Source: Candidatus Zhuqueibacterota bacterium
GTDB lineage: Bacteria > Zhuqueibacterota > Zhuqueibacteria > Thermofontimicrobiales > Thermofontimicrobiaceae
Direction: 5' to 3'
DNA length: 64,000 nucleotides
Assembly: GCA_034506395.1 (NCBI GenBank)
Contig: JAPDPQ010000003.1
Span: 230,693-294,692 of the forward strand
Shown one piece after another: positions 16,440-20,794 of the stretch. Position numbers and translations under genes: made by a program. Numbering within the stretch: the first letter of the stretch is position 1; every line of letters begins with the position of its first letter. The notes below the pieces were generated by a model. That model made no database searches, was not told the origin of the DNA, and saw only the letters and a list, made by a program, of their open reading frames with translations.

Positions 16440-17215
16440 TAAGCCCAGCTGCGGGTGGCAGCGCGTTGCTTCATGACAGCGTAAACCGTTCGTTTCACTG
16501 ACGCCGCCAATGAACGAGTGGTGTTTTATCTAAGCAAAGACTGGAGTCCCCTGCAAAACTCGGGTTATTTGGAACTGCAAGAAAATATTCACATCAGTCA
16601 CAACACCATTTATCAGCATATCTGGGCTGATAAACGAGCGGGAGGCGCGCTGTATCCTCGTTTGCGCTGGTCGCACAAAAAGAAACCCAAGCGCTACAGC
16701 AACTGAGACCGACGCAGACAAATCCCCAATCGGATTAGCATTGAGCAACGTCCCGCTGTGGTGGATCAAAAGCTTCGACAGTGTGATTGGGAGCTGGACA
16801 CCATCATCGGTGCCAATCATCACTGCGCCATGGTGTCCGCTCTCGAGCGCAAGTCACAATTCATTTGCCTCAAACTGGTGACACATAAAACCGCCGAGTT
16901 AGTGACTGCCGCCATTATCGATAAGCTGGCTGGCCTCAAGCATAAGGTGCATACCTTAACCGTCGATAATGGGAAAGAGTTTGCTTTACATCACCAATTG
17001 GCAACCGCATTGGAGGCGTCGGTATATTTCGCCCATCCTTATCGTTCTTAGGAACGCGGCCTGAATGAAAACATCAATGGTCCCATTCGACATTTTTTTA
17101 CAACGAACCATGATTTTTTGATCGATCACCGAACAAGACATTTTCTTTGTTGAAAATCGACCGAATAATCGACTCAGAAAATCATTCAATTTCAAAGCAA
17201 CCAATGAAATTTTTT
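16440..17215 (+). pseudogene. Decayed IS30-family transposase (5'-truncated, in-frame stops, frameshift)
   Basis: Pieces read 'WSPLQNSGYL...ISHNTIYQHIW', stop, 'RPAVVDQKLRQCDWELDTIIG...LTVDNGKEFALH...YFAHPYRS', stop, 'ERGLNENINGPIRHF', then after a frameshift '...RLRKSFNFKATNEIF'. These match IS30 blocks (wSPeqI, sheTIYryI, GhWEgD, DNGkEF, PYxswqRGxNEN, PRKxLxfxTPxExF). Confidence 0.75.
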
Positions 17216-17265
17216 AATTCATCGGTTGCTCTTGGGACTTGAATCCACCTAGTATAAAAAAAGAG

Positions 17266-17294
17266 TTGACATTCAACTCAACATTTTGTATATT
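17266..17294 (+). promoter_or_regulatory. Sigma70-type promoter of the XRE-led module
   Basis: The elements are TTGACA (17266-71), a 17-nt spacer and TATATT (17289-94), about 50 nt upstream of the ATG at 17345. A GTTGA-N8-TCAAC dyad overlaps the -35. Confidence 0.5.
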
Positions 17295-17344
17295 TAACGT
17301 CGCTTGATGAAATTTTAATTAACTGATCCATCGGGGGGCACCGC

Positions 17345-17686
17345 ATGAATCAGACATTTGGAGAACTGTTACGAAGCATCCGCCGATCGAAGGGAATGAG
17401 CCAGCGGGAGTTGGCCGATCGGATTGCTGTCGATTTTTCCTACATCAGCAAATTGGAGAACGACCGCATTCCGCCGCCAGCCGCTGATACCATCGTCAAA
17501 ATATGCCAGGTATTGGGAGTCCAACCAGAATTGCTGCTCTCCCTGACGGGAAAACTTCCCAGCGAGATCAAAGAGCTAATCGGTTCCAACCCCAAAGCGC
17601 TGGAGTTTCTCCGAAAAGCCCATGCGATGAATCTCGATGAAAAAGACTGGGATGAATTGCATGCCAAACTTGCCTCGCTGCGTTAG
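17345..17686 (+). CDS. XRE-family helix-turn-helix transcriptional regulator
   Basis: 'FGELLRSIRRSKGMSQRELADRIAVDFSYISKLENDR' is a classic HTH_3/Cro-CI motif. Confidence 0.85.
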   Translation: MNQTFGELLRSIRRSKGMSQRELADRIAVDFSYISKLENDRIPPPAADTIVKICQVLGVQPELLLSLTGKLPSEIKELIGSNPKALEFLRKAHAMNLDEKDWDELHAKLASLR

Positions 17687-17813
17687 CATCAGCGGTTGGC
17701 CGATCCAATGGTAAGCCACCCAGAACCGTCCAGGTTTGGCATTTATTATTTCGTCCTTGACCAGCTACAACGCCAGTCGGGACAAATAAGAATGTTCACT
17801 ATTGAGGTGGATC

Positions 17814-18260
17814 ATGAGTGATCATTGGATTTCGTATCAGAGTTTTGTTAAGAATCAGCAACTGCTGGAAGCCATCAACACCCTATCGATACATACGAAA
17901 TTGAAATTAGCTGGCGATGCCGACAGTGGACGATCCCAAGAGGTCGAACAAGCAAAACAGCAAATCGCTCATTTCATCACGACGTTTGATCAATTGATCC
18001 AAAAAAATAATGATGATCAAACACTTCATGGCGCCGACGAGCGATTGCGACAACTGCTGCAAGATTTCTATTCAGCCAGAAGGGACAATCAGAAATTTCG
18101 TTCTCAGTTCTTTACGAAATCACCATCTCAAATTCTCAAGCTGATGGCTTCAGATAAAACTGAAGATGAAGAAGCCCTGGTCGAATGCTTAAGAGAGCTA
18201 AGGTTGTTGATCGAGCAACATGTTCATGCTGATACCACTGCCATCCTGGGGGAATTTTAA
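17814..18260 (+). CDS. Hypothetical all-helical acidic protein
   Basis: ATG at 17814 has GAGGTGG 4 nt upstream. There are no recognisable motifs. Its stop (TAA) shares a base with the ATG of the next gene at 18260. Confidence 0.55.
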   Translation: MSDHWISYQSFVKNQQLLEAINTLSIHTKLKLAGDADSGRSQEVEQAKQQIAHFITTFDQLIQKNNDDQTLHGADERLRQLLQDFYSARRDNQKFRSQFFTKSPSQILKLMASDKTEDEEALVECLRELRLLIEQHVHADTTAILGEF

Positions 18261-19426
18261 TGCGGGAGATACTGGAGCAAGCCAATTTAGCCCTGTTAGC
18301 CGAAATCGATTTACTGATCGCTGCTTTGCCCGATAAAAGTTCGATCGCTCCGGAATTAGCCACCTATTATGACCAAATTGAAGCCTCATGTCAGTGCTTG
18401 CGCCAGAAAGTGCGTCAGTCATTGAAAGATTTAAGCAGGGGAAAAGACAATATCCTCGTCGATATTCTCAGCAATACCCAGACTCACACCCGTGAATTTC
18501 ATCTCTATAATTATCGCTTGGTCACGCCATTGCGGCGCTATCGTGAGTCGGATTTGCTCTGCTTGAAACTGATCCACTGGCTACATCAGATGCATCCGAA
18601 GACCCGTATGATACCTGGCGCTTTTTGCGATGGCGATATTGGGATTTATCCCTCCATAGGCTATCCCATCACTTATTTCATGCCAACGTCTGCGCAGTAC
18701 GGTTTGCTCTATTTGCCGCTGTTCTTTCATGAATTCGGCCATCTGCTCTACGCCTGTCATGAACCTGAGATGAACCAATTGGTATTTGACTTGCAAAATG
18801 AAATTGATTCTATCATCAAGCAGGAGATGGTCAATCAAGGGGCCAAAGGTCCTAAAAATGCCCAAAAGCGCAAAGTAATTGTCCAAACCTGGTTCACCTG
18901 GACCCAGGAACTTTTCTGCGATGCGGTGGGATTTCAGATCGGGGGACTGAGTTATATTTACGCTTTTTCGATGTATCTGAAGATGTGGGGCATCGATCGG
19001 TTTCATCTCCCCATTGAACGATTGACCACAAGCACCCATCCACTCACTTGGTTTCGCATCAAATTTTTGGCGGAATTTCTCCAAGCCGCTGGCAATGAGA
19101 AGGTTGCGGAATGGCTGACCGCAGAGTGGCAGGCGATCGCCGATGCTCTTGCTGTGAACGAGGATTATTTTGGCTTTTATCAGGACGATTTTAAACCGCC
19201 AATTATGGAAACGCTGCGCAGTATGCTGGAAGAAGCTGCGCCGCTCCTCTACAGCCAACACGAATTTGATGCATACCAGCCGTGCCCATCCCCGATTGAT
19301 GTGTTGAATTGGGCCTGGCAAAAATTTTATGAAGACCCCAATGGCTATCCGCAATGGGAAAAGCAAGCAGTTTCGACTTTTCTCAGCACGTTTGATGCGG
19401 TATACCATCCCACCGCCGCAAAATGA
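18260..19426 (+). CDS. Putative gluzincin-type zinc metallopeptidase-like protein (HEFGH)
   Basis: 'LPLFFHEFGHLLY' gives HExxH in an M3-like sequence context. A downstream 'TQELFCDAVG' is a candidate third-ligand Glu helix. The gene is translationally coupled to the upstream gene. Confidence 0.6.
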   Translation: MREILEQANLALLAEIDLLIAALPDKSSIAPELATYYDQIEASCQCLRQKVRQSLKDLSRGKDNILVDILSNTQTHTREFHLYNYRLVTPLRRYRESDLLCLKLIHWLHQMHPKTRMIPGAFCDGDIGIYPSIGYPITYFMPTSAQYGLLYLPLFFHEFGHLLYACHEPEMNQLVFDLQNEIDSIIKQEMVNQGAKGPKNAQKRKVIVQTWFTWTQELFCDAVGFQIGGLSYIYAFSMYLKMWGIDRFHLPIERLTTSTHPLTWFRIKFLAEFLQAAGNEKVAEWLTAEWQAIADALAVNEDYFGFYQDDFKPPIMETLRSMLEEAAPLLYSQHEFDAYQPCPSPIDVLNWAWQKFYEDPNGYPQWEKQAVSTFLSTFDAVYHPTAAK

Positions 19427-19452
19427 CCTCAGAATGATTGGGCAGCAAATTT

Positions 19453-19676
19453 ATTTTGGGGAGAATTATTTGGAGCAGGATGATTTATAGCAAGATAATT
19501 TTAAACAGGGCAATTGAAATCACTCTGCTGTCAATTATCCTGCTATTCGAGTTAATCTAACTTTAATTTTTGGGACGGAATTATTTTTAGCAGGATGATT
19601 TGTGTTAGGATGATTTATAGCAGGATAATTTTAAACAAGGCAATTGAAAACTTTCTGCTGTCAATTATCCTGCTAT
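19453..19676. repeat. Two tandem copies of a ~105-110-bp unit, each with a 14-bp inverted repeat and multiple copies of a 12-bp motif
   Basis: Copy 1 is 19453-19556 and copy 2 is 19565-19676. ATAGCAGGATAATT (19617-30) pairs with AATTATCCTGCTAT (19663-76). The motif AGCAGGAT(G/A)ATT occurs at least 7 times, in both direct and inverted orientation. Confidence 0.8.
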
Positions 19677-19723
19677 GAATAAGTTCTGCTGGCAATTTTC
19701 TTTCAGAAAGAAACTTCAAAAAA

Positions 19724-20794
19724 TTACACATTGAACCGAATGCTCAGAATATCGCCATCCTGAACGATGTAATCTTTGCCTTCCAGCCGAAAAGCGCCGT
19801 TGCTTTTCACGGCTTTTTCCGAGCCCGCTTTGATGAGGTCAATGTAATTGAAGCACTCAGCACGGATGAATCCCCGCATCAGATCGGTGTGGATAACGCC
19901 CGCAGCTTGCAGCGCTGTCGAGCCTTTGCGGATGCTCCAGGCTCGCACCTCATCTGAACCAACCGTGAAAAAGCTGATATACCCCAGCATGTCATAGGCA
20001 AATTTGGTCAACCGATCTCGGGCCGACTGCTCGATCCCCATCTCTGCCATGAATAGCCGCATATCCGACTCATTATCGAACTGCGCCAGCTCCATTTCGA
20101 ATTTCCCTGCAAATTCGATCACATCATGGGACTTTTGGATGGATTGAATCAATCCGTTCCCTTTGCCAAAATTTTCTTCGCCCGAATTCAGGATCACCAG
20201 CAAGGGCTTGAGCGTCAGATACTGGTAGCCTCGAATGACCTTCAGCTCGTCCTGGCTCAATTCCAGCGTGCGGATAGGCTTGCTGTCAGTCAAATGATCG
20301 TGGATCCTTTGCAAGGTCTTTTGCTCGAACAGCAGCTCGTTAGTCTTCTTTCCACGGGAAAGCTGATGGGCGATCCGCTCCAATCTCGTTTCTGTGAAGA
20401 CCAGATCGAACAACAACAGTTCATCGCTGATCAATTCTATATCCTTCAAAGGTGACGAATGGCCATTTAATTCATCTTTGAAATTTTTGACCACCAGTGC
20501 CAGTGCATCGGTGGTCTTCACCAGATTCAATAATTCGGGCGAAAAAGCCCCATCCTTGGCTGAACCGCTGGACAGACCGATGAAATCGATCAGTTCTATC
20601 GTCGCAAATGTTGTCTTTTGCGGTCGATACATTTCGGAGAGCGTTCGCACCCGTTCGTCGCCAACTTCCACCACGGCAATATTGGGCTCGGCCTTGGCCG
20701 CCACAAAGTTGTGCACCTCGGCCTGCGAACGGGTGAGGGCATTGAAAATCGTTGTCTTGCCAGAATGTTGCAATCCAATTAAACCAAGCTTCAT
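19724..20794 (-). CDS. ychF: Ribosome-binding ATPase YchF/OLA1
   Basis: 'MKLGLIGLQHSGKTTIFNALT' gives the P-loop. The C-terminal TGS-like end reads 'FIRAECFNY...GKDYIVQDGDILSIRFNV'. Confidence 0.9.
   Translation of the reverse strand: MKLGLIGLQHSGKTTIFNALTRSQAEVHNFVAAKAEPNIAVVEVGDERVRTLSEMYRPQKTTFATIELIDFIGLSSGSAKDGAFSPELLNLVKTTDALALVVKNFKDELNGHSSPLKDIELISDELLLFDLVFTETRLERIAHQLSRGKKTNELLFEQKTLQRIHDHLTDSKPIRTLELSQDELKVIRGYQYLTLKPLLVILNSGEENFGKGNGLIQSIQKSHDVIEFAGKFEMELAQFDNESDMRLFMAEMGIEQSARDRLTKFAYDMLGYISFFTVGSDEVRAWSIRKGSTALQAAGVIHTDLMRGFIRAECFNYIDLIKAGSEKAVKSNGAFRLEGKDYIVQDGDILSIRFNV

Follow-up and report, generated by a model that had tools for sequence, protein, structure and literature searches.

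The prokaryotic Argonautes (pAgos) PliAgo and RslAgo are DNA-guided RNA-cleaving nucleases, and operons of constant composition with a helix-turn-helix (HTH) regulator and a Cas4-like nuclease have been described, those of the PnyAgo group containing a sigma-70 factor (Lisitskaya et al. 2022, PMC9360449). Two genes downstream in these operons are neither named nor characterised in the text of that study. Lambda-repressor-like HTH proteins and Cas4 were also recorded among pAgo neighbours, but an operon of the present type was not defined there (Ryazansky et al. 2018, PMC6299218). Here, a three-gene locus of Candidatus Zhuqueibacterota bacterium was compared with these systems. It lies on a stretch of 64 kb (contig JAPDPQ010000003.1, positions 230,693 to 294,692), which is referred to as the window and in which all coordinates are counted, and it encodes a 113-amino-acid (aa) XRE-family regulator, a 148-aa helical protein and a 388-aa protein with an HExxH motif. 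A preliminary description, made from the letters of the window, had proposed this triad as a novel repressor-protease switch, defence module or toxin-antitoxin-like module. The decisive context, which is an Argonaute operon minus the Argonaute, was invisible in those letters alone and is new information.

The HTH regulator and the last gene of the Runella representative of the PliAgo/RslAgo-group operons (PADLOC pAgo_II plus Aga_Cas4-like_Nuc, class II) are homologous to those of the window. In contrast to these operons, the window contains neither nuclease nor pAgo and so lacks the gene content that defines class II, and the pAgo of its closest five-gene relatives is only 27% identical to PliAgo in PIWI. 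The CapH/CapP pair (Lau et al. 2022, bioRxiv 10.1101/2022.04.27.489752; Calloji et al. 2026, PMC13228613) resembles the window in its small XRE protein, consisting of an HTH and a short C-terminal helical domain, and in a repressor at the promoter of a defence operon that is encoded with an HExxH metalloprotein. However, the HExxH protein of the window is not M78/IrrE-like by hidden Markov model (HMM) and profile comparison, and is almost all-helical and 388 aa long. Moreover, the window family has an extra helical partner, its genes flank the cargo rather than standing together upstream, and the pair of small and HExxH proteins also occurs with sigma-70 regulators. The same logic of an XRE repressor with a metallopeptidase anti-repressor, regulator first and peptidase downstream, is found in ImmR/ImmA of ICEBs1 and DdrO/IrrE of Deinococcus, but no COG2856/M78 homology was detected in the HExxH family, and an XRE plus M78 pair at the related locus L050 was unrelated by hhalign. 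APACE, a long-A pAgo with the Argonaute-associated Cas4 enzymes ACE1/ACE2 (PMC12094033), shares with the full operons related to the window a Cas4-family nuclease with a C-terminal cysteine cluster and a seemingly competent pAgo; no XRE, helical or HExxH partner appears in the text searched, and the window differs further in having no nuclease or pAgo. Both the pAgo-nuclease-HTH operon and the repressor-peptidase logic were already known. By contrast, no account of the two accessory families, of how constant they are or of a triad that is repeatedly orphaned yet selected was present in the full texts searched, subscription-only papers lying outside the search.

Relationship to Argonaute operons

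Reading of the open reading frames confirmed three intact co-directional genes at the coordinates noted before. The stop codon TAA of the helical gene (18258-18260) overlaps the ATG of the HExxH gene (18260-18262) in a TAATG junction. The features of the module are as follows.

17263-17279, no strand: operator-like dyad GAGTTGA-cat-TCAACTC (GAGTTGAcatTCAACTC), a perfect 7-3-7 inverted repeat over the -35
17266-17294, + strand: sigma-70-type promoter TTGACA-17 nt-TATATT, score 11/12
17345-17686, + strand: XRE-family repressor gene, 113 aa, Pfam HTH match
17687-17813, + strand: XRE-helical spacer, 127 nucleotides (nt), at the place of the Cas4-like nuclease and pAgo genes (~3.3 kb) in related operons
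17814-18260, + strand: gene of the small helical partner protein, 148 aa counted from the ATG, helical in the AlphaFold model
18260-19426, + strand: gene of the HExxH protein, a putative gluzincin-type zinc metallopeptidase, 388 aa, near-invariant motifs
18728-18742, + strand: HEFGH motif (H157, E158, H161) within LFFHEFGHLLY, conserved in 178-179 of 180 homologues
18908-18922, + strand: ELFCD motif (E217 to D221) within QELFCD, E217 and D221 conserved in 180/180, candidate third zinc ligand and supporting Asp

Related loci (numbered with L below) were collected from genomes and metagenomes and compared by tblastn. Wherever a related locus offered enough sequence, the XRE, helical and HExxH genes were all present and their order was constant, and in most loci the XRE gene was located 3.3 kb upstream of the helical gene. 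The full order of the operon was XRE, Cas4-like nuclease, long pAgo, helical and HExxH. In L005, the nuclease (321 aa) was a Cas4-like PD-(D/E)xK protein (Pfam PDDEXK_1, 8e-24; PADLOC Aga_Cas4-like_Nuc, 2e-29) and the Argonaute (761 aa) matched PADLOC pAgo (1e-33). Residues D546, E580, D615 and D746 were invariant with DEDD-like spacing in an alignment of 11 associated pAgos, and because of this tetrad the associated pAgos are predicted to be probably active nucleases.

The linkage was counted from both sides. The peptidase-side census, in which some short-form relatives were sampled on purpose, gave 20 pAgo-linked loci, 10 short forms and 10 uninformative fragments, and the pAgo was directly upstream of the helical gene in 20/30 informative loci. 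The pAgo-side census revealed all five genes in nearly all of the 46 genome loci with enough flank, and these came from Poribacteria, Acidobacteriota, Planctomycetota, Chloroflexota, Bacteroidota, KSB1, Desulfobacterales, Latescibacterota and others. The three genes of the window were orthologous to, and in the same order as, those around the nuclease and pAgo in dozens of loci. As regards origin and family membership, these comparisons make it nearly certain that the triad corresponds to the outer genes of a pAgo defence operon with five genes. The defence association suspected in the preliminary description was supported, and the gene family is clearly spread horizontally, being found in pAgo operons of many phyla and on plasmids. 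In tblastn with the L005 pAgo and nuclease, nothing was found within the 64-kb window, and no homologue was detected in IMG/VR contigs or GenBank phages that would point to a phage origin.

Loss of the nuclease and pAgo and retention of the triad

The nuclease and pAgo were absent from the locus in the window and in at least four other lineages, two of which carried deletion scars. Short forms with XRE, helical and HExxH genes were found in the clade of the window (the window, L001, L038/L039 and L040) and further in L003/L012/L013, L011, L019 and L042. The scar of L019 fused the first 45 nuclease codons to the last ~40 pAgo codons, and that of L011 contained a frameshifted nuclease N-terminus. 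In the L019 and L011 scars the Cas4 N-terminus scored 38 and 18 bits and the pAgo C-terminus 70 bits, and none of 300 shuffles scored as high. In the neighbour-joining tree, the short forms were placed at several positions inside one subclade while the deep clades were all pAgo-linked, and P0007 (61% identity), the outgroup closest to the clade of the window, was a complete five-gene operon. Additionally, an insertion in or partial deletion of the pAgo, with XRE, helical and HExxH genes intact, was observed in L100, L105, L109, L112 and L114. Given the scars, the tree placement, the five-gene outgroup and the partial pAgo deletions, the five-gene form is ancestral, with its core lost repeatedly.

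The substitution pattern of the remaining genes was then evaluated as the ratio of nonsynonymous to synonymous change (dN/dS). For all three genes and six pairwise comparisons in the window's clade, dN/dS was 0.02-0.19 (0.02-0.08 for XRE, 0.14-0.19 for the HExxH protein) at dS from ~0.3 to >1, and the dN/dS of the neighbouring ychF gene was similar. In the independent short clade, L003 against L012 gave 0.10-0.18 for all three genes. These ratios indicate that the triad is kept by selection at a locus without nuclease and pAgo. Our reading is that both were lost long ago in the window's lineage and that the outer genes persist as a functional, self-regulated cassette.

A deletion scar was also suspected by eye in the window spacer, as a pAgo C-terminus, and was rejected as no significant remnant was present. 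With HMMs of the Cas4 N-terminus and of the pAgo C-terminus, 138/300 and 36/300 shuffles, respectively, scored as high as this spacer, and no DNA similarity of the spacer to the nearest five-gene relative, L041, was found.

Promoter, operator and XRE regulator

The promoter is a strong one and was the best-scoring site within 16900-19800. The dyad over its -35, which had been noticed before, was found at a single place in the 64 kb, where chance would give 0.1 occurrences. The promoter/operator block of ~40 nt was identical in the window, L001, L038 and L040 and nearly identical in L041 and L042, despite the coding sequences of L001, L038 and L040 being at or near synonymous saturation. Upstream of the XRE gene, the motif GAGTTGACAnnCAACTC(AAC) was present in nearly all related loci across phyla, and so was the operator consensus GAGTTGACAnnCAACTCAAC with TTGACA embedded, in all phyla. 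A second dyad close to the -10 was found in some related loci. Among 185,579 genomes, 27 exact matches to the operator were detected, and 17 of them were directly upstream of the window-type XRE family; the number of the remaining, non-XRE matches was about that expected by chance. Further XRE targets were considered and rejected, since no second operator existed in the 64 kb and the non-XRE genome matches stayed near chance level. Because the operator is conserved across phyla and upstream of this XRE family, autorepression is strongly supported, and on this comparative evidence the XRE protein is very likely to repress its own operon at the dyad.

The XRE identity of the regulator was confirmed by Cro/C1-type HTH matches above the curated thresholds, with Pfam HTH_19 (54.1 bits, E 1.4e-14, cut-off 30.2) and HTH_3 (52.6 bits, E 4.6e-14, cut-off 23) both covering residues 6-69. 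PADLOC capH matched it over the full length (E 4.9e-12, residues 1-110 on profile positions 3-96 of 103), in a library without curated cut-off in which the generic HTH_VI model scored slightly above capH. Antitoxin models gave only weak sub-threshold matches. The layout is CapH/DdrO-like, an N-terminal HTH followed by a conserved C-terminal extension of ~45 aa, in which K70, F88, L97 and W102 were invariant among 15 aligned orthologues. CapH is cut in just such a C-terminal domain (bioRxiv 10.1101/2022.04.27.489752). By this analogy, it may be hypothesised that the layout suits a substrate of a repressor-inactivating peptidase.

The HExxH protein and its small partner

In gluzincins, such as thermolysin (M4) and neprilysin (M13), HExxH is accompanied by a downstream Glu, often within ExxxD. 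Over 180 full-length homologues of the 388-aa protein, H157 (179/180), E158 (179/180), H161 (178/180) and C220 (179/180) were near-invariant, and E217, D221 and W214 were found in 180/180. H167, the alternative third ligand at the metzincin/WLM-like +6 position, was kept in 163/180 (90%). As E217 and D221 are invariant while H167 is not, a site of the gluzincin type HExxH...ExxxD is favoured. The AlphaFold model (predicted local distance difference test, pLDDT, 88; predicted template modelling score, pTM, 0.88) was almost all helical, with HEFGH in the predicted helix 149-166 after two short strands and ExxxD in the predicted helix 198-228. The likeness to gluzincins, an HExxH helix after beta-strands and an invariant ExxxD on a later helix 56 residues on, was at the motif level only, and the protein differed from M4, M13 and the like in having no detectable sequence or fold similarity to them. 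Taken together, the 388-aa protein is a putative metal-dependent peptidase, an assignment that its motifs make fairly probable.

No family was found to which the protein could be assigned. Neither as a single sequence nor as a profile did it match Pfam, NCBIfam, PADLOC, PHROG or PDB sequences; Pfam, Peptidase_M78 (PF06114) included, gave nothing at E≤1, and PADLOC-DB v2 contained no match for the protein or its distant homologues. For 36 family members, whose alignment had ~45 invariant positions, no Pfam or NCBIfam peptidase model matched even at E≤10. The comparison of the family with the M78-like protein of L050 by hhalign gave a probability of 0.3%, and Foldseek of the model against PDB and BFVD yielded nothing at E<0.3. 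A word-indexed search revealed at least 471 homologues, every named member of which was "hypothetical", and an exhaustive HMM search of 1.84 billion representatives gave 876 cluster representatives at E≤1e-3. All of the best 150 of these 876 matches were of the same family, without a bridge to a known peptidase family. The 388-aa protein belongs to a large unnamed family that no known peptidase matched.

Two homologues had unusual architectures. In P0132 (586 aa) the HExxH protein was fused to a C-terminal DUF488 domain. P0136 (505 aa) resembles a further product of deletion, since the middle part of a pAgo runs straight into the HExxH protein at residue ~100.

The 148-aa protein was mildly acidic (pI 5.5) and was predicted by AlphaFold as an all-helical bundle (pLDDT 84), consistent with its first reading as an acidic helical protein. 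It matched no family in Pfam, NCBIfam, PADLOC, PHROGs or PDB sequences, PADLOC-DB v2 giving one noise-level match (E 0.018), and Foldseek returned only weak, generic four-helix bundles. Its 34 homologues were all hypothetical proteins, and the N-terminal motif AINTLSIHTKL was invariant in their alignment. The helical gene was always directly upstream of the HExxH gene, and the two overlapped by 4 or 1 nt, or abutted, in 52/61 loci.

Distant versions on plasmids

Distant homologues of the HExxH protein were found on plasmids (20-28% identity by tblastn, hhalign probability 97.6-98.7%). All kept HExxH, and ELFCD was retained as E(F/L)(F/A)CD in Runella, Spirosoma and Haloplanus. The conjugative plasmid pRUNSL03 of Runella slithyformis DSM 19594 (L115) encoded an HTH protein, a PD-(D/E)xK nuclease, a pAgo, a 125-aa protein and a 378-aa protein behind the same promoter/operator layout with a variant half-site. 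Its pAgo was related over the full length to PliAgo (structure 7R8F, E 3e-111), its HTH protein was homologous to the XRE protein of the window including the C-terminal part (hhalign probability 97.9%), and its 378-aa protein was homologous to the 388-aa protein (hhalign probability 98.7%). As this plasmid belongs to a cultured strain, the system is directly testable. The Spirosoma oryzicola plasmid (L117) contained a sigma-70 factor, a 181-aa protein, a Cas4-like nuclease, a pAgo_II, a 132-aa gene and a 387-aa HExxH homologue. On an archaeal plasmid of Haloplanus, a 112-aa gene and a gene for a 380-aa homologue followed an AddAB-like helicase-nuclease pair and converged on a pAgo, with no adjacent regulator. 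From the comparison of these three versions, the constant set comprises the nuclease, the pAgo, the small protein and the HExxH protein, and the regulator varies.

By hhalign, no homology was detected among the small proteins whose genes precede the HExxH gene in L115, L116, L117 and the window. They do share the N-terminal pattern L-x-x-(I/F/L)-N-(D/T)-(L/Y/A), as would be expected if the proteins had diverged rapidly while a single helix with an Asn was conserved.

Several neighbours of the plasmid operons were also recorded. The 181-aa protein of Spirosoma (L117 2182-2727), which has no family match and directly follows the sigma factor with a 4-nt overlap, is a candidate anti-sigma factor. 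A multiubiquitin-domain protein and a ThiF/E1-like adenylyltransferase adjoined the pAgo operon in Runella pRUNSL03 (L115 8375-10554) and Spirosoma (L117 1-1188), and in pRUNSL03 a DUF6527 protein was also beside these genes. Multiubiquitin/E1-type systems have been tied to CapH/CapP-like regulators (Lau et al. 2022, bioRxiv 10.1101/2022.04.27.489752).

Spacer, flanks and neighbouring genes

The spacer between the XRE and helical genes (window 17687-17813, L001 7423-7554 and equivalents in L038, L039 and L040) contained conserved blocks, such as GTTTGGCATTTATTATTT and GGTCGGGACAA, and predicted hairpins, which were kept among relatives near synonymous-site saturation. Covariation in the fold of the spacer alignment was negligible, and no Rfam family exceeded its threshold in the spacer or in the downstream repeat block. 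The spacer could contain an internal promoter or an RNA element.

The following features flank the module, and the first of them is no part of it.

16518-17216, + strand: decayed IS30-family transposase pseudogene, 207 bits, E 4e-61 to NCBIfam NF033563 transpos_IS30
19451-19676, strand not assigned: downstream repeat block between the HExxH gene and ychF

Both flanks had been pointed out in the preliminary description and were found to be real. The conceptual translation of the IS30 relic contained in-frame stops, with a Pfam rve match on a 97-aa fragment. The repeat block consisted of three register-overlapping copies of a 96-nt unit with 63-100% identity to the reference copy. The two best copies were ~130 nt apart, each with 18-20-nt inverted repeats (AGCAGGATAATT / AATTATCCTGCT), and the unit occurred at one place only in the window. 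The block may be a MITE-like (miniature inverted-repeat transposable element) sequence or a terminator-like structure. It is followed downstream by ychF on the opposite strand. In all three examined relatives of the window, the cassette also adjoined ychF and a copper ATPase gene (copA), and the upstream side alone differed; the IS30 relic was specific to the window, and fucosidase genes occupied the same position in the three relatives. The earlier view that the triad interrupts otherwise housekeeping genes was therefore not sustained, and this shared synteny implies that the cassette is old in the window's lineage rather than a recent insertion.

At other related loci, different neighbours were noted. 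A PHP-domain gene was directly after the HExxH gene in the Anaerolineae-like short-form clade (L003 7146-9267, L012 5384-7629, L026 6791-7504); it overlapped the HExxH gene in L003, and a CpXC-domain gene came next in L003 and L012. These genes may be replacement cargo or plain host synteny. Genes with an N-terminal MHKWWARR were located just downstream of the HExxH gene in L019 (2615-3154) and L031 (858-3482). Such a motif characterises DUF1156 DNA methylases, so that both loci may lie in defence islands. At L050 (4967-5997), a canonical XRE gene (144 aa) and an M78/ImmA-like HExxH peptidase gene (197 aa, HEIAHGELH) were beside a decayed XRE-helical locus, and two different XRE plus HExxH modules therefore adjoin there.

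Discussion

The explanation that we favour overall, with clear reservation, is a pAgo-less derivative of the five-gene operon that works as an XRE/peptidase switch. From the comparative evidence, XRE dimers would occupy the dyad that covers the -35 and so repress the operon that encodes them. The HExxH protein, judged by its invariant motifs, would be a zinc metallopeptidase of a new gluzincin-like family, and the coupling of the genes suggests that it would be made in a fixed ratio with its translationally coupled helical partner. Upon an infection or stress signal, the peptidase might inactivate the regulator, most simply by cutting the C-terminal oligomerisation region of XRE, a step modelled on CapP/CapH, IrrE/DdrO and ImmA/ImmR. 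Inactivation of the regulator would induce the nuclease and pAgo in full systems; in the window, induction would be confined to the cassette and to whatever unlinked targets XRE may have. That the HExxH peptidase cleaves the regulator is, by analogy, a possibility held with less confidence than the derivation as a whole. From the preliminary description, the link to defence and the novelty of the HExxH family stood, the analogy to M3 did not, and by comparison with the known pairs a repressor-protease switch would remain a reasonable model.

Several observations weigh against this switch. No peptidase of similar sequence or structure was detected, and the proposed catalysis rests on motifs. 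The small and HExxH pair stays with pAgo and nuclease under a sigma factor or, in Haloplanus, under no regulator; as the pair also occurs with sigma-70 or without an adjacent regulator, a dedicated XRE-cleaving protease is plausible and not implied, and this regulator-independent pairing fits a pAgo-tied or effector role at least as well as cleavage of XRE. Decay has also gone further at some loci, L050 having XRE and helical genes only and L065 the helical gene only. A pure regulator of lost cargo would be expected to decay, and its long retention needs the extra assumption of other XRE targets or of an autonomous function, with one operator only in 64 kb.

The main rival is an effector or toxin, in which the HExxH peptidase would attack cell or phage proteins, leading to abortive infection or growth arrest, with the helical protein as inhibitor or adaptor and XRE as transcriptional lid. 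In full systems, target recognition by the pAgo would license the effector; without pAgo, the triad would be a three-component toxin-antitoxin-like or stand-alone defence cassette, and its retention would be explained thereby. This proposal accounts as well as the switch does for the fact that regulators interchange and that the triad is retained. The small and HExxH pair is constant with pAgo and nuclease while regulators are interchangeable or absent, and at least five lineages that lost the pAgo kept the three genes together under purifying selection. A stoichiometric complex is suggested by the translational coupling, short forms adjoin toxin-antitoxin genes in L042 and L038, and active pAgos are known to use accessory effectors (PMC11442185). 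However, the associated pAgos keep the DEDD-like tetrad and the group of the Runella relative consists of active RNA cleavers (PMC9360449), so an extra killing effector is unnecessary. In addition, no similarity to a known toxin or defence effector was found, PADLOC included, and no membrane or secretion features were noticed. We consider the effector role doubtful.

The regulator of the sister operons, where a sigma-70 factor and a 181-aa protein take the place of XRE, speaks for the switch favoured above, as sigma/anti-sigma pairs are the other class of regulators known to be under protease control in defence, as in CalpL/CalpT/CalpS and Craspase/Csx30/RpoE. A broader idea is that the helical and HExxH pair might give class II (RNA-targeting) Argonaute immunity a protease arm that had escaped notice. 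In this arm, a metallopeptidase of a new fold family would turn a nucleic-acid or infection signal into proteolysis of the regulator, and the arm would also act autonomously. By analogy with Craspase/Csx30/RpoE and CalpL/T/S, one branch would use XRE as its regulator and another a sigma/anti-sigma pair. Being autonomous, such an arm would therefore be kept with XRE after loss of the Argonaute in lineages like that of the window. This idea is speculative and, as a whole, unlikely.

The pair might also serve the pAgo-nuclease machinery as a cofactor, for example in generation or loading of guide DNA or in assembly or turnover of the complex; it would then be functionless in the absence of that machinery, which would make the window triad a leftover. 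The strict co-occurrence with pAgo and PD-(D/E)xK nuclease in bacterial phyla and an archaeon, at 20-30% identity, is what a cofactor would show. Nevertheless, both genes were intact with dN/dS of 0.08-0.19 at dS ~0.7-1.4 in two independent pAgo-less clades, and no pAgo or nuclease homologue was present within the 64 kb, a result that applies to the window and not to the rest of the genome. A cofactor role thus appears improbable.

The location beside a dead IS30, the many decay stages among related loci and the shortness of HExxH as a motif would suit a non-functional remnant or chance open reading frames with a fortuitous HExxH, which is nevertheless very improbable in view of intact genes, a conserved promoter and dN/dS far below 1 in four genomes, of a family of hundreds with its many invariant positions, and of the 66-78% HExxH-protein identity of the relatives, which excludes assembly duplicates of one genome. 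A housekeeping M3-like oligopeptidase with a local regulator, for which only the HExxH motif and the protein size speak, can be given practically no weight, because neither M3 oligopeptidase models (Pfam, NCBIfam) nor PDB sequences matched the 388-aa protein, no housekeeping peptidase of any kind was found to match it, the 36 members matched no peptidase model, and the family is patchy across phyla, located on plasmids and linked to pAgo; the M3-like context of the preliminary description found no support in HMM, profile or PDB-sequence comparison, and an M78 relationship was equally not found.

DNA-guided RNA-cutting pAgos are under development as tools. Our work revealed that a small helical protein and an HExxH protein are nearly constant members of pAgo operons of this kind, both in bacteria and on a plasmid of a haloarchaeon, and that the HExxH accessory family is without a detectable relative among solved structures. 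The control element of the operon is strikingly conserved across phyla. The nuclease-Argonaute core was lost many times over, with selection still preserving the regulator and both accessory genes. Should the HExxH protein indeed be a signal-activated peptidase, a protease signalling or effector layer would be added to Argonaute immunity, and a new metallopeptidase family would be defined.

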